Shown one piece after another: positions 10,655 through 30,020 of a stretch of 64,000 nt of DNA (the stretch's first letter is position 1; every line of letters begins with the position of its first letter). The stretch is from a virus. The notes below the pieces were generated by a model that saw only the letters and a list, made by a program, of their open reading frames with translations, was not told where the DNA came from and made no database searches. Both the position numbers and the translations under genes were made by a program. The DNA lies in the IMG/VR virus record IMGVR_UViG_3300026488_000025, positions 1 to 64,000 of that record; one strand, given 5' to 3'.

Positions 10655-11320
10655 TTATTTTCTCTTAACCTTTTTGAGTTTTTCGTTTTCTGCTTCAAGC
10701 TCTCTCATTTTCATCATTGTTTCTGCTGTTGTGTCTGCTACTAGCATATCGATTGTTTCATCTATATCGAGTAGCTTCTTAGCGTCACCTTCAAATCGTT
10801 TCTCAAGCCAGAAAGCAGTAGCATTCATCATTACCATCATTAATATGTTTGAAGCAAATGTATTCAGGTTAATATTCAGGTCCACATTGGTATATAATGC
10901 AATCATTCCCGATACAACAAAAATAAACATAAAGACTCCTGCTCGTATACCCACTAGAAAATAAGCATATATGATAGCAAATATAAACCAATCAAATCTC
11001 ATCATATTTTCTGTATTGACTAATACATTTAAAGCGGCATAAATCGTGAACATTGCAATAGTAGTATATACAGATACTAAGAAAGATTTAGAATACACTA
11101 ATCGGGCATTCGCTATTGTTAGAGCAAACACGACGCTTAGGCTCCATAATACATAATGAATTCCCACATCAGGTATAGTAAGCATATATTTGTAGCCGAA
11201 TAGTAATGTAACGAGAATACTAAGCACAGCATTCCAATTAAAATACATATACCTATCGGCCATTTGTTTTTGGTGTATTGTCTTACCTGAGTAAGAAAAG
11301 TTCTTTAGAAAATCATACAT
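10655..11320 (-). CDS. Polytopic membrane protein with C-terminal coiled coil (sensor-like)
   Basis: About 5-6 hydrophobic segments; overlaps the end of the histidine kinase gene. Confidence 0.6.
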   Translation of the reverse strand: MYDFLKNFSYSGKTIHQKQMADRYMYFNWNAVLSILVTLLFGYKYMLTIPDVGIHYVLWSLSVVFALTIANARLVYSKSFLVSVYTTIAMFTIYAALNVLVNTENMMRFDWFIFAIIYAYFLVGIRAGVFMFIFVVSGMIALYTNVDLNINLNTFASNILMMVMMNATAFWLEKRFEGDAKKLLDIDETIDMLVADTTAETMMKMRELEAENEKLKKVKRK

Positions 11321-20185: not shown

Positions 20186-20932
20186 TTAGTTCTTATGTAT
20201 AATCCCTTCTTTAACGAGGCGGTTTATTTCTTTCATATTCTTTTTGACTCTTTCATAATATAGATTATTGTGCCACCCACCATTGTATTTACTGATAGCT
20301 CCAAAATACGGGTTTCCTCGATTCTCTCTAACTGCTCTGTCATAATTGTATTTAAGGTATGAGTGTGCTACGATAGTATTGAAATGAATATCACCTAAAA
20401 GTTTACTAACAAGCACCGTATCTAAAAGAGAGAAACCATAATACTCTTTGTATAGTTCTTTATTCTTATCTAGGACTCTATTTGCCCATTTAAGGACTTG
20501 TTTGTCTTTTTTATCATTGATGCCATCGTAGTATTTCGGGTTATTTACTATTTTAGTGAATTTATTGATTTTTCTTTTGATTTTTGTAAATTTTTGTGTT
20601 AGTCTATGAGGTACATACAGATAATAGTAATTCTCGTGCATATAAGATTCTTTCAACATCATTTCTCTTGCCGTTATTACTCTAGTTTGTAAAACACCGA
20701 GTGATGCTTCAGTCAAACCTGAATATTTGCTGTGTATTTGTTGGTCGCCTACTATATTCTTCCCGGCTGATGATTCTGTAAGTGCCATAGCACATAAAGT
20801 TTTCTCAAAAGAGTGTCCATCGATAGCCTTCATTTCTAAACCAGTATTATACACTTCATTTAGGACACTTATCTGGTATTCCGAATAACCGTATAAAAAA
20901 GTAGATAACATTATAATTAAAATCTTCTTCAA
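20186..20932 (-). CDS. Secreted lytic transglycosylase (SLT-like)
   Basis: Signal peptide; ALTESS catalytic motif, SLGVLQ and AISKYNGG. Confidence 0.7.
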   Translation of the reverse strand: MKKILIIMLSTFLYGYSEYQISVLNEVYNTGLEMKAIDGHSFEKTLCAMALTESSAGKNIVGDQQIHSKYSGLTEASLGVLQTRVITAREMMLKESYMHENYYYLYVPHRLTQKFTKIKRKINKFTKIVNNPKYYDGINDKKDKQVLKWANRVLDKNKELYKEYYGFSLLDTVLVSKLLGDIHFNTIVAHSYLKYNYDRAVRENRGNPYFGAISKYNGGWHNNLYYERVKKNMKEINRLVKEGIIHKN

Positions 20933-20974: not shown

Positions 20975-21649
20975 CTAGATGAATTTAGAAGCTTTAAGTG
21001 GGTAGTACTTTCCGTGTTGGAAATAAGGCATTTCTATACCTTTACCAGAGATTTTTTCAGTAACAAGGACTTTAAAGTTAAGCTCTCGTTCTAGTTCTCC
21101 CGGGTTGTTGAACTCATTCTTTGATTTTTTCTCTAATAGCACAAGATTATCTGGTACGATACCTTGAATATACGGATTAACACAAAACCACACGAAGCCT
21201 TTTCTTTGGGTCTTGTCGCCGAATCTGTAAATAGGTACATCACCTAAATCACGACTGAATTGTTGGACTTGTTCTTTGTTCATACTCTTGAAGAACATTA
21301 CATATTCTGCATCTTTAGCATCAATCAATACTTTAGGCGAAACAAATTTCTCGAATTTCTTAGGTGAGTCTGTTTGTCTTCTTAGTAGATAAGGGACTTC
21401 ATTACTCCTACGAGGTTTCAGTACATTCGTTAGATACTTAGCATCTGCCGAAGTAATTTCTTCATAATTCACAAAAGTAGGTAAATCCTTATCATCTATT
21501 TGTATGTACCAGTTGAACGGCATTCTTGTGCTGATATATTCTTGATACGGTATCTTATTATTTTTCGCTGCTGTAAGAAACTCGTTATAAGCTGTTACAT
21601 CATAATAATCATCAAATGTTATATAAACTTTACTCATTGGTGCCCTCAC
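20975..21649 (-). CDS. Hypothetical protein
   Basis: ORF in the late operon. Confidence 0.6.
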   Translation of the reverse strand: MRAPMSKVYITFDDYYDVTAYNEFLTAAKNNKIPYQEYISTRMPFNWYIQIDDKDLPTFVNYEEITSADAKYLTNVLKPRRSNEVPYLLRRQTDSPKKFEKFVSPKVLIDAKDAEYVMFFKSMNKEQVQQFSRDLGDVPIYRFGDKTQRKGFVWFCVNPYIQGIVPDNLVLLEKKSKNEFNNPGELERELNFKVLVTEKISGKGIEMPYFQHGKYYPLKASKFI

Positions 21650-21893: not shown

Positions 21894-22408
21894 TTCTTTC
21901 TCCTTTTCTTAACGCTCATCTTCCAAGCATCACTTGATGAGATTCCCATAAAATGTTCGCCTCTAAGCTCCACCACTTTCAAGTAGCTTTCGTGTGGAAT
22001 CAAAATACCTTTCTTACTTATTCTCTTATTTATATATTTTCTTAGTGCTGGAGCACCACTCTTAGCAAGTAACTTTAACATTCCCTGATAAGTAAAATCT
22101 AAAGGTTTTCCTGCTTTAATATTTCTTTTGTTTCTTCTTAGTATAATCTTCATTAAATTCTTTCTTACAGAAGGTGGTATCCAGTGCCAGTTTAATGCAA
22201 GAGTATGTCTGCTATTTCTACCTAGTATCATTGCCATAGGGGTAGCATCATACGGTGATTTCTTATCTTTTGCATTATAAGAATACATTATTATTTGTCC
22301 AGGCTGGAAATCTGAAGCCTTTAGTATTTTAGGTTTTTTTGCTAAATGTTTTACTAAATCAAAAGCTTCTTTCTCGTTACTCGTTAGTTTTTTTCTTATT
22401 TTACTCAT
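21890..22408 (-). CDS. DNA end protector (gp2-like)
   Basis: PGQIIMYSYNAK...YD..P...LALNWHWIPP..R. Confidence 0.8.
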   Translation of the reverse strand: MSKIRKKLTSNEKEAFDLVKHLAKKPKILKASDFQPGQIIMYSYNAKDKKSPYDATPMAMILGRNSRHTLALNWHWIPPSVRKNLMKIILRRNKRNIKAGKPLDFTYQGMLKLLAKSGAPALRKYINKRISKKGILIPHESYLKVVELRGEHFMGISSSDAWKMSVKKRRKK

Positions 22409-22781
22409 TCGGTACTCCTAGTATTGCACTAATTTTTTCTTTGAGGACTTGTGGTGTAAACGGCTTGACAATGTAGTTATTCACGCCTGCTCGCAAAGCT
22501 TCGAGAACGCTCATTTTCCCACCCTCTGTCGTAACCATTACAATAGGTATCTCTTTATTCACTACACGAACTTTTTTAACGAATTCTAGTCCATTCATTA
22601 CGGGCATATTCCAATCTGTGATAATAATATCGAAAGGTTTATCGAATGAAGCTAGTGTATAAGCTTCAAATGCTTCTTCTCCATTGATTGCTTTCGTGAC
22701 ATCTTTGTACTCTAACCTAGCTAGTGTATTGGCAATAATCCTCAGCATCGTTGTGCTATCATCTACAATTAGTATTTTCAT
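22401..22781 (-). CDS. cheY: Chemotaxis response regulator CheY (stand-alone receiver)
   Basis: MKILIVDDS, ITDWNMP (phospho-Asp), MVTTEGGK, GVNNYIVKPFTPQVLKEK; closely matches Campylobacter/Helicobacter CheY. ATG at 22781. Confidence 0.9.
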   Translation of the reverse strand: MKILIVDDSTTMLRIIANTLARLEYKDVTKAINGEEAFEAYTLASFDKPFDIIITDWNMPVMNGLEFVKKVRVVNKEIPIVMVTTEGGKMSVLEALRAGVNNYIVKPFTPQVLKEKISAILGVPNE

Positions 22782-22794
22782 ATAAATATTTATA
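22781..22794. promoter_or_regulatory. Overlapping divergent late promoters for gp4 (+) and cheY (-)
   Basis: TATAAATA at 22781-22788 (+) and at 22787-22794 (-). Confidence 0.6.
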
Positions 22795-25075: not shown

Positions 25076-26560
25076 TTATTTATACTCTTCTTTTCTTATA
25101 GCATAACTGTCAATTCTTACAACTAACCAAGTTAAGGCGAGATAAGTTATTTCAAGAACAAAGGTCATTAAAAGATTTATCATCTTTAATAAAGCTAACA
25201 GTTCTATACCAAGCAACTCAGCAGTAAAATTAAGTGCTTTGTTAGTTTCTCCTACTTGTTTCTCATTCAATTCAATCTTTGCTTGTTCTTTTGTGTCTTC
25301 TAAACTAGTAATCTTATCTTGAAGTACTTCTACTTTTTTATTGATAAGTTCAACCTTACCTGCTTTAGAGCTAATGATAATAGTTTTCTTTTCTTGAACC
25401 TTAGAAATTTCATCATTCATTCTATTAATTTGAATCTGTAAGTTTCTTTTCATAGTCTTATAGTTCTTAGGTAAATCACTTATCCTAACTTTAGTATTAG
25501 TTATTTTATCTCTTATACTAGAAATACTTGAATCTAATGCACTAAGCTGTAATTGGATATTCTTCTCTACCTCAGGTATAGTGTTTTTTACTGTTAAGAT
25601 TCTACTATTTGCTGTTAGAATCTGTTTATCGATAAATTTAATTCTACTATCACCCATCGAAATGGTCTTAGCATCACCAACAGTCGATACGGCTAGACTC
25701 GAATAGATTCCTACACTAGATACGAATACCATCCCCACTAATGATGCTACTAGCACCATTCTGAGCATATAGTGATTGAAGTAAAATGCTATTTTGTCTT
25801 GCCATATTTTACCTATTTTTTCTTTATCAACACCTACTGAAAGAATTTTTATGATAGCCATCTTAGCTACATATAAAGAAACAATAATAAATGTTACCTG
25901 CGAAGGGTCTAAACGATGGTATGTTTCTTTCCAACCATCGATGTCAAACGATATAGCACTAGCAGCAATCATCAACATACTAACCATAACAATAAATCTT
26001 AGTGACATAACAAAATCTAATGTACCAGATACAACCCTAGAAGTGGTTTCAATAACAGTTTTTATGGTGCTCTCAAATTTCGATACTTCTGGTTCTAAGG
26101 TATCCGCATCTTTGAAAGGCACAAAATCATCTTCGCATATAGAAAGTAGGTCATCTATTTCATCTTTTGATAATACCCTAGGTTCAGGTTTCTCTGGTTT
26201 TTTGGGCTCCATTAGGTCTATATCTAGGTCTACTGTACTAGCAATGACGGTATCTAAATCAATTATTTCATAAACCGTGTCTTCAATATTTGGGTAATCG
26301 TACGGTTTTACTTCGTTCAAAGGTATGTCATCAGCATCATCAGCTTCGTCGCTATGAAGGTCTTCTATGACTAGTGGTTCGTTGTTCACTGGAATACTTT
26401 CTCTATCAGGCTGAATGGTATTTGTACGCTCGAAATACTGAGGGAATGCCGCTTGAAGAGAAACATTATCATTATCATCTCCGTGGAATAGTTTGTAATG
26501 TTTTCCGGCAAAAGTAATACCGACTGAATTAAATGGTTGTTCTGATAAATCTACTTTCAT
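25076..26560 (-). CDS. Membrane protein with acidic N-terminal region, about 4 TM helices and a long coiled coil
   Basis: Hydrophobic segments, a heptad-rich region and the peptide VLSKDEIDDLLS. Confidence 0.65.
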   Translation of the reverse strand: MKVDLSEQPFNSVGITFAGKHYKLFHGDDNDNVSLQAAFPQYFERTNTIQPDRESIPVNNEPLVIEDLHSDEADDADDIPLNEVKPYDYPNIEDTVYEIIDLDTVIASTVDLDIDLMEPKKPEKPEPRVLSKDEIDDLLSICEDDFVPFKDADTLEPEVSKFESTIKTVIETTSRVVSGTLDFVMSLRFIVMVSMLMIAASAISFDIDGWKETYHRLDPSQVTFIIVSLYVAKMAIIKILSVGVDKEKIGKIWQDKIAFYFNHYMLRMVLVASLVGMVFVSSVGIYSSLAVSTVGDAKTISMGDSRIKFIDKQILTANSRILTVKNTIPEVEKNIQLQLSALDSSISSIRDKITNTKVRISDLPKNYKTMKRNLQIQINRMNDEISKVQEKKTIIISSKAGKVELINKKVEVLQDKITSLEDTKEQAKIELNEKQVGETNKALNFTAELLGIELLALLKMINLLMTFVLEITYLALTWLVVRIDSYAIRKEEYK

Positions 26561-29086: not shown

Positions 29087-29758
29087 TTAATCTATTAGAT
29101 ATATTTTATAAGCAACGATATTTCTGTCATACCAATAGAAGCTATTCTTCCAATAAGCATATTTAAGAATAATTGAGTTTCTTTTGTCGATTTTTACCTC
29201 AAACGATGTTTTATAAAGTTCTTCGCTTTCTTGTTTCTCTTTCTCTATCCAATCTACTGAATATTTCCAAATAACATTCTTATTTTCATTAATATAACCT
29301 CCAAGAACACCATTCTTCATAATTGTTTGCTCGAGAACTCTATCATAACCATAACTAAATCTATACTGAATAGCACCTTTTAATATTGTTGGTCTTAATA
29401 CAATACCACCATTTAGTGATTCTTCATCGTATGATAATTGGTCTACATATAGTTTTTTAACTTTGCCAAATAATATTACATCTGTATATAAAACATTATA
29501 AGGGTCCATTAAGACTGTATAATCTGCTAAATAATCGATGTACTCTGTATTATTTGTTTTAGCAACATTGTATTCACCTTTAACTTTATGTGTTGTAATT
29601 CCTGCTTTGATAGCAGTTTCGAGTTTTAAATTTGTTGATTCTACTTCTGTGTGAGGTGTTGAAGATGTTGAATACCCACCCTCTCCGAATGTTTTTAAAT
29701 GTGTTACATCAAATCCTGATAAACTTAATGCTAGTAGCAATATTAGTAATGTTTTCAT
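29087..29758 (-). CDS. Putative outer-membrane beta-barrel protein (DUF481/YdiY-like)
   Basis: Signal peptide MKTLLILLLALSLSG and alternating aromatic beta-strand pattern; late promoter and RBS upstream of 29758. Confidence 0.5.
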   Translation of the reverse strand: MKTLLILLLALSLSGFDVTHLKTFGEGGYSTSSTPHTEVESTNLKLETAIKAGITTHKVKGEYNVAKTNNTEYIDYLADYTVLMDPYNVLYTDVILFGKVKKLYVDQLSYDEESLNGGIVLRPTILKGAIQYRFSYGYDRVLEQTIMKNGVLGGYINENKNVIWKYSVDWIEKEKQESEELYKTSFEVKIDKRNSIILKYAYWKNSFYWYDRNIVAYKIYLID

Positions 29759-29786
29759 TGTTTCTTCTCCTATATATTTAAGGTAT

Positions 29787-30020
29787 TTATAAGAATAGGT
29801 GTGGTTTGTCTTCTTTGATTTTGACAATTTCTTCATTTGAAATCAAAACAATATTAGCAAGACGCAAATCTTTCTCTGTTTTATGTGTCCTATATGAAAT
29901 TGTAAAGTGAAAATTTTCTTCTAACATAGATACAGCACAAGCATCTTCTTTAGAATGTTTAAGATATCCAATATAACCTTCTAAATAAACCCACCCTTCT
30001 GGAGCGTTTCGCAACATCAT
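29787..30020 (-). CDS. Hypothetical protein, C-terminal family (KPHLFL)
   Basis: Shared C-terminal motif. Confidence 0.6.
   Translation of the reverse strand: MMLRNAPEGWVYLEGYIGYLKHSKEDACAVSMLEENFHFTISYRTHKTEKDLRLANIVLISNEEIVKIKEDKPHLFL

Follow-up and report, generated by a model that had tools for sequence, protein, structure and literature searches.

In the 64,000-nucleotide stretch of the IMG/VR virus record IMGVR_UViG_3300026488_000025 that we analysed (positions 1 to 64,000 of the record; hereafter, the window), a minus-strand open reading frame (ORF) codes for an orphan phage protein, P0001, which combines a small conserved N-terminal domain, a long acidic linker, several hydrophobic helices and a coiled-coil hairpin (Table 1). 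Its linker carries a peptide that closely resembles the N-terminal peptide of FliM (FliM-N) from Campylobacteria. Docking peptides for phosphorylated CheY (CheY-P) are known on the FliM, FliY and CheZ proteins, and we predict, at what we regard as even chances, that the P0001 peptide is a membrane-tethered mimic of FliM-N that docks CheY-P. The gene begins with an ATG preceded by an AGAGG ribosome-binding site 6–7 nucleotides upstream, and its start codon is sound, given the conservation of the N-terminus MKVDLSEQ...FPQYFE among the homologues (alignment A1).

The element is centered on VLSKDEIDDLLS, residues 129–140 of P0001 (window 26141–26176, minus strand), which a preceding sequence-only reading had rightly picked out, placing it at 26141–26180 and thereby overshooting its end by 4 nucleotides. 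For comparison, FliM was fetched from 32 Campylobacteria genomes, and the 15 distinct N-termini were converted into an ungapped 17-position position-specific scoring matrix (PSSM) with empirical nulls. The FliM N-termini (n = 32) read MADILSQ[E/D]EIDALL[E/D]VVDD, with the host-class form MADILSQEEIDALLEVVDD, and the phage peptide RVLSKDEIDDLLSICED follows this pattern across 17 residues, that is, beyond the 10-residue core. When the phage LSKDEIDDLLSICEDD is set against the host LSQ[E/D]EIDALLEVVDD, the core LSKDEIDDLL proves identical to the FliM-N form at 8 of 10 positions and the extended match at 9 of 17, with the remaining changes being conservative.

On the PSSM the phage site scores 22.4 bits versus 45.7–53.3 bits for the four true FliM N-termini scored, and no other of the 26,601 positions in the six frames of the window exceeds 9.8 bits, the second-best score. 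The top non-FliM site in the bacterial loci (~0.3–0.4 million residues scored) reaches 16.8 bits; one further bacterial site at 27.3 bits, near the start of an ORF adjoining cheY in an alphaproteobacterial metagenome-assembled genome (MAG), is probably FliM itself. Shuffles of the acidic linker of P0001 attain 22.4 bits in 9 of 200,000 cases. A HMMER model of 20-residue FliM N-termini also ranks P0001 first and its homologue P0005 second among the window ORFs and the P0001 homologues, with an E-value of 0.16 under a scheme that penalizes such short models. When the peptide was used as a 30-residue protein query against five Campylobacteria genomes no match was recovered, the method being insensitive for queries so short. 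As a separate observation, the highest non-FliM background, at 12.8–16.8 bits, comes from a recurrent [E/D]-I-[S/T]-x-D-E-F-[D/E]-A-L-L-D element at residues 180–230 of ~700-residue ORFs, probably CheA, that adjoin cheY in gammaproteobacterial loci (L059:4212-6314, L061:4184-6340, L022:4116-6152).

The frequency of the core alone was gauged with the degenerate DNA pattern LSx[D/E]EIDxL[L/I/M/F], which has 80 sites in 61 Campylobacteria genomes, ~60 at the start of FliM and ~20 elsewhere, as against 2 sites for the reversed control pattern in the same genomes. Outside FliM the 10-residue core pattern occurs at ~0.3 sites per 2-Mb Campylobacteria genome, and therefore ~0.01 would be expected in a 64-kb window and ~0.05 in a 330-kb phage; the extended 17-residue match is rarer than this core. 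Among the non-FliM core sites inspected, two are an apparent wrong-frame artefact and one is a helix start within a larger protein.

The peptide resides in a part of P0001 with little predicted fold. An AlphaFold2 model built from a 12-sequence alignment (mean predicted local distance difference test score, pLDDT, of 65.7) leaves residues 47–160 disordered, with a pLDDT of ~32, below 50. In the second half of the linker, confidence rises only at a short helix spanning residues 132–140, directly after Ser131 (pLDDT 53). Residues 1–170 hold 42 D/E versus 14 K/R. Both the acidity and the modelled disorder bear out the sequence-only reading, which had assigned the peptide to an acidic, probably disordered N-terminal region ahead of the transmembrane (TM) helices. 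An SSB-tail-like EDDFVPF immediately C-terminal to the motif was considered and dropped, as it is internal and not conserved.

Hydropathy places the TM segments at residues ~183–207, 222–244, 265–291 and 450–482; these helices are of moderate confidence in the model, and the FDIDGW..Y loop between TM1 and TM2 is invariant in the family alignment. The coiled-coil hairpin is independently corroborated by its homologues, in which both arms shorten jointly (66/82, 41/57 and 34/50 residues). The N-terminal third most likely faces the cytoplasm, a topology which we infer from the want of a signal peptide, the size and acidity of the 182-residue region before TM1 (44 D/E versus 15 K/R, net charge ~−29) and a modest positive-inside bias, loop 2 and the C-terminal tail being somewhat more basic than loop 1. 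Searches of P0001 against Pfam, PHROG, NCBIfam and PADLOC matched no family. Foldseek comparison of the model with the PDB retrieved generic coiled coils alone (SMC, F-BAR, PaxB/YaxB and MCP, all with E >0.01), the profile of alignment A1 found nothing with E <0.2 among PDB sequences, and an ESM Atlas search yielded viral clusters without names only.

Table 1. Coordinates in the window of the P0001 gene, its parts and associated features.
Feature	Window position	Strand	Basis
Orphan phage membrane/coiled-coil protein P0001, 494 residues	25076..26560	−	
N-terminal mini-domain, residues 1–45, conserved; two strands and a helix, FPQYF motif	26426..26560	−	Alignment A1; AlphaFold2 pLDDT ~84
Linker, residues 46–175; acidic, variable, modelled as disordered	26036..26425	−	Composition, alignment, AlphaFold2
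FliM-N-like peptide RVLSKDEIDDLLSICED, residues 128–144	26129..26179	−	PSSM 22.4 bits, AlphaFold2 helix, FliM comparison
Hydrophobic helices TM1–TM3, residues 183–291	25688..26014	−	Hydropathy, alignment
Antiparallel coiled-coil hairpin, residues 297–450	25211..25672	−	AlphaFold2 pLDDT ~91; homologue arm lengths
TM4, C-terminal hydrophobic helix, residues 450–482, then short basic tail	25115..25213	−	Hydropathy, alignment
EAL-HDOD gene, upstream of P0001	26886..28130	−	PF00563 E 2.5e-12; PF08668 E 8e-7
Phage cheY, 126 residues from MKILIVDD, candidate partner	22401..22781	−	PF00072 E 3.6e-27
Late-promoter box TATAAATA, directly upstream of cheY	22787-22794	−	

The P0001 family is small, with ~12 proteins among 5.8e9 sequences and 8 representatives among 1.8e9. 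Its conserved parts are the N-domain, the TM block and the hairpin, while the linker is unalignable and nearly absent from the three shortest members. Strong FliM-likeness is displayed by two of the 12 members: P0001 and P0005, which is 45% identical to it and bears EILTPDEVDALLANVTE at 21.3 bits (a score reached by 10 of 200,000 shuffles), together with a second copy, KNLSRDEISEVLNPTEE, at 11.6 bits. A looser LSxxEIxxL-type form, [LIV][ST]xx[DE][IVL]xx[LFIVM], lies 42–66 residues ahead of TM1 in five of the 12 members and 95 residues ahead of it in a sixth (P0003), against a chance expectation of 0.04–0.1 per protein. The short capped helix is thus a recurrent feature of the presumed cytoplasmic arm of the family, and its sharpening into a copy of the host FliM peptide is specific to particular lineages, a pattern that fits a fast-evolving mimicry motif. 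In two other members, P0008 and P0009, an ExoX-like_C motif (PF20600, 28–30 bits) at residues 40–71 takes the place of the usual N-terminal mini-domain, which suggests that the cytoplasmic head of the membrane module is exchangeable. Outside these proteins, an IMG/VR-wide scan of viral contigs and a search of metagenome contigs turned up no relatives of the P0001 ORF, and neither tblastn of P0001 against 50,697 phage records nor megablast of the 18–30 kb part of the window against phage records gave a match.

The phage is T4-like and codes for gp23, a scaffold protein, the gp21 protease, the gp20 portal and gp2; it has a GC content of 33% and comes from a hydrothermal-vent metagenome. Its IMG/VR record spans 79.7 kb, and an identical P0001 protein is also encoded on a 331,651-bp contig. 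The P0001 gene is part of a tightly packed minus-strand run comprising genes for a PD-(D/E)XK nuclease and the EAL-HDOD protein, a 105-residue ORF, P0001 itself and two small ORFs. It had been described from the sequence as lying downstream of the EAL-HDOD gene and near cheY, and this placement holds: the EAL-HDOD gene is upstream in the same orientation with the single 105-residue ORF in between, and cheY begins 2.3 kb past the end of the P0001 ORF. The encoded CheY is of the host type, being ~65% identical to Helicobacter pylori CheY1 (3gwg; E 2e-43), with the segment NNYIVKPFTPQVLKEK, covering β5 and α5, identical in the two proteins. Its best genomic relatives are the CheY of a Campylobacterales MAG (61–63% identical) and Halarcobacter; the cultured phages in the collection have no close CheY, the best being 40% identical. 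Based on these affinities of the phage CheY, the most likely host is one of the Campylobacterota living at vents. T4-type late-promoter boxes of the form TATAAATA number 31 across the window versus 14.5 expected, and one stands 5 nucleotides before the cheY ATG, inside the gp2/gp4 head-completion cluster; hence, cheY appears to be expressed late.

Two related viral contigs, L114 and L115, resemble this phage in gp23 (62–64% identical) and in CheY (66–67% identical) and have the gp2–cheY order in common with it, gp4 having been seen only in L115. Both also carry a 126-residue ORF (L115:7481-7861 and L114:7447-7848, minus strand) between homologues of the window genes at 20186–20932 and 20975–21649. 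This ORF has no Pfam match and contains YVKNQEEIDALIDYLDF, which scores 18.6 bits on the FliM-N PSSM and may be either another look-alike, though a weaker one, or a helix arising by chance; we did not adopt it as a second decoy, as it is without the Leu-Ser start and by eye may be a folded β-α unit. Elsewhere in the window, the minus-strand ORF at 11313–12299 matches HATPase_c below the threshold (E 2e-4, 22 bits versus a cut-off of 26.4) and HisKA not at all, which leaves any histidine kinase assignment, and with it a link to cheY, tentative. A 249-residue minus-strand ORF at 29087–29836 has a probable start at the internal Met of MKTLLILLLALSLSG..., which resembles a signal peptide, and a TATAAATA box at 29784–29791, ~25 nucleotides upstream of this Met; from these two features its product is probably made late and either secreted or placed in the envelope.

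Scanning IMG/VR for exact occurrences of the extended Campylobacterota-type motif yielded five matches: two in proteins with the look, by eye, of ParB-methylase fusions, two in an unrelated small protein, and one in the jumbo-phage contig IMGVR_UViG_3300026484_000308 (L140; 114 kb, GC 27%). In the last of these, a 143-residue protein (L140:754-1185, minus strand), also present on a 281-kb contig, begins with MADILSQEEIDRLLDICEDE and scores 39.9 bits, and a gene with a CheW domain (L140:3247-3657, minus strand; PF01584, 36 bits) lies 2 kb away. The L140 and P0001 proteins are thus both phage-borne, display LS.[DE]EID.LL.ICED and have a chemotaxis gene nearby; indeed, the ICED tail that the two peptides have in common is found in none of the 32 FliM proteins. 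The codons used for the two peptides differ (e.g., Ser TCA versus AGT), which argues against a recent DNA transfer. The L140 protein differs from P0001 in being a small, soluble coiled-coil protein and in opening with an exact FliM-type N-terminus (MADILSQEEID...), and the two are otherwise unrelated in sequence. A search with the 143-residue protein yields no homologues beyond itself, and neither a receiver domain nor cheY was found in the 114 kb of L140. Its gene is adjoined by genes for three small coiled-coil proteins with similar ends, in the form of L-x-x-x-F-[EG] tails.

Among the characterized systems, CheY-P binds the N-terminal EIDAL(L) motif of FliM or FliY in its α4/α5 groove, with the peptide acting as a tethered site that captures it at moderate affinity (PMC6946799, PMC9126983, PMC7355467); the FliM-N/CheY complex of E. 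coli is available as PDB 1F4V. P0001 and the Campylobacterota FliM-N have in common the core L-S-x-[D/E]-E-I-D-x-L-L, after which come one hydrophobic residue and a run of acidic ones, and in both a short helix sits on a disordered tether, which in P0001 is expected to face a cytoplasm containing a CheY of the H. pylori CheY1 type. They differ in that the P0001 peptide lies inside a protein of 494 residues, has Q replaced by K and A by D, and ends in the ICED tail; moreover, its carrier is a polytopic phage membrane and coiled-coil protein without the FliM middle or SpoA domain. Consistent with this, P0001 has no match to PF02154 or PF01052, and the 79.7-kb record has none to PF01052. The FliY N-terminal EIDAL peptide of Bacillus and Thermotoga offers a precedent for the same docking motif on another carrier, implying that it is portable, and full or degenerate copies are sporadic in FliN/FliY (PMC6946799, PMC9126983). 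FliY, unlike P0001, is a C-ring or CheC-family protein, and the carriers are unrelated. The C-terminal peptide of E. coli CheZ is likewise a tethered amphipathic element that engages the same face of CheY. The CheY-binding peptide of CheZ has a DDLL form, as does the P0001 peptide. In CheZ, however, it is at the C-terminus of a phosphatase, whereas in P0001 it is 350 residues from the C-terminus, and no CheZ family match was found; the binding of the FliM and CheZ peptides was measured by McAdams 2008 (as cited in PMC9126983). By its domain content and the position of the peptide, then, the P0001 element falls outside the FliM, FliY and CheZ families.

Under the reading that we favor, P0001 would be an inner-membrane protein whose small folded domain and ~130-residue acidic disordered tether extend into the cytoplasm, with the tether displaying a mimic of the EIDALL peptide from the N-terminus of the host FliM. 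FliM-N takes on a short helical fold within the α4-β5-α5 groove of activated CheY, and by analogy the P0001 peptide might do likewise, thereby docking at the membrane the CheY-P of the host, of the phage, or of both. Such docking could make P0001 a competitor of the motor switch for CheY-P, or else feed CheY-P as an input to the TM and coiled-coil module.

Several observations weigh against this reading. The peptide is internal rather than N-terminal and carries the Q→K and A→D changes relative to FliM-N. On the FliM-N PSSM, ten of the 12 homologues stay under 10 bits, and the closest, P0002 (63–66% identical), retains the degenerate remnant SILTEKETLALNELFPD at 7.2 bits. Hence, of the FliM-like CheY-P peptide proposed from the sequence alone, the strong resemblance to the host class and the host-like phage CheY stand, while conservation across the family does not, and this pattern weakens the claim that CheY docking is the core function of the family; the outputs suggested alongside it, lysis timing or motor jamming, are speculative. 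As for the expectation that the peptide would recur in cheY-positive relatives, L114 and L115 have no P0001 homologue in the available DNA. Unlike cheY, the P0001 ORF has no late-promoter box directly upstream, and so the two genes may differ in when they are expressed. The predicted N-in topology derives from the weak positive-inside bias and from how large and how charged the N-terminal region is. Finally, a membrane protein of modest copy number would make a poor bulk sink for CheY-P, given the dissociation constant of 27 µM quoted in PMC9126983 for the isolated FliM-N peptide. As this peptide binds weakly on its own and the carrier is a membrane protein, we find it somewhat likelier that P0001 would recruit or sense CheY-P locally than sequester it in bulk.

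A further elaboration of the docking model, which we consider improbable, is a private chemotaxis branch in which the phage CheY, phosphorylated by the host CheA or a phage kinase, would dock on the P0001 mimic and so gate the long coiled-coil hairpin on the opposite side of the membrane. Were it true, the hairpin device could control lysis timing, exclude superinfecting phages or act on the nearby polar motor, and P0001 would be the first viral “motor-like” CheY-P receptor as opposed to a passive decoy.

A different explanation, less probable than CheY-P docking though a real possibility, is that the site forms an N-capped amphipathic helix of a generic kind (hydrophobic, Ser/Thr, x, x, Glu, hydrophobic) serving a role of the family's own, such as a contact within P0001 or with some other protein of the phage, in which case the FliM likeness would be incidental and neither CheY nor FlhG would be engaged, perhaps also for the reason that the N-region lies outside the cytoplasm. 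In its favor, most homologues have only the loose LSxxEIxxL form (LSKQDIKFF, LTEEDVKDF, LTEKETLAL), and it finds parallels in the ~20 non-FliM core sites of the 61 genomes, some of which fall at helix starts of real proteins (e.g., VLSKDEIDKLL in L134), and in the matches of 16–18.6 bits within ORFs of the related phage contigs, namely a nuclease homologue and the 126-residue ORF. However, the P0001 score stands 4–6 bits above all these background matches, with the flanking I and the acidic tail matching as well, and P0005 attains a comparable score within an unalignable linker. The site is also located in a segment modelled as disordered and not in a folded domain, and the phage encodes a host-type CheY.

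A more doubtful alternative, which we regard as unlikely, is that the peptide docks the MinD-like ATPase FlhG instead of, or besides, CheY-P, and thereby titrates or relocates it so as to disturb the assembly or placement of the host flagella. FlhG controls flagellar number in polar flagellates by way of this EIDAL motif of FliM/FliY, to which it binds, a point that the sequence-only reading had missed; its sequence requirement is the same as that of CheY, such that the mimicry cannot separate the two partners (a further point against a reading confined to CheY-P), and MinD-type ATPases cycle on and off the membrane, a behavior that a membrane-anchored decoy would suit. Nevertheless, this phage carries its own CheY, with no FlhG or FlhF noticed in it, albeit without a dedicated search, L140 has a CheW-like gene near its FliM-N copy, an arrangement that points to chemotaxis, and the binding of FlhG to C-ring proteins is called unclear in amphitrichous and lophotrichous systems, for example, many Campylobacterota (PMC12826062).

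Irrespective of the partner, P0001 defines a rare orphan family of ~12 members with a distinctive architecture. Short-motif mimicry is well known for eukaryotic viruses and, to our knowledge, hardly documented for phages; no published phage protein mimicking FliM-N was found in the literature searched. If CheY-P docking is borne out, it would mean that phages target the last step of chemotaxis signaling by short-motif mimicry, the novelty being a short motif for CheY docking borne by a viral membrane protein alongside the phage's own CheY. Such mimicry could also help explain the presence of CheY, CheW-like and cyclic-di-GMP (c-di-GMP) genes in the large phages of motile Campylobacterota, with the phage described here possibly using its FliM-N mimic to tap or divert the control of swimming in its host.

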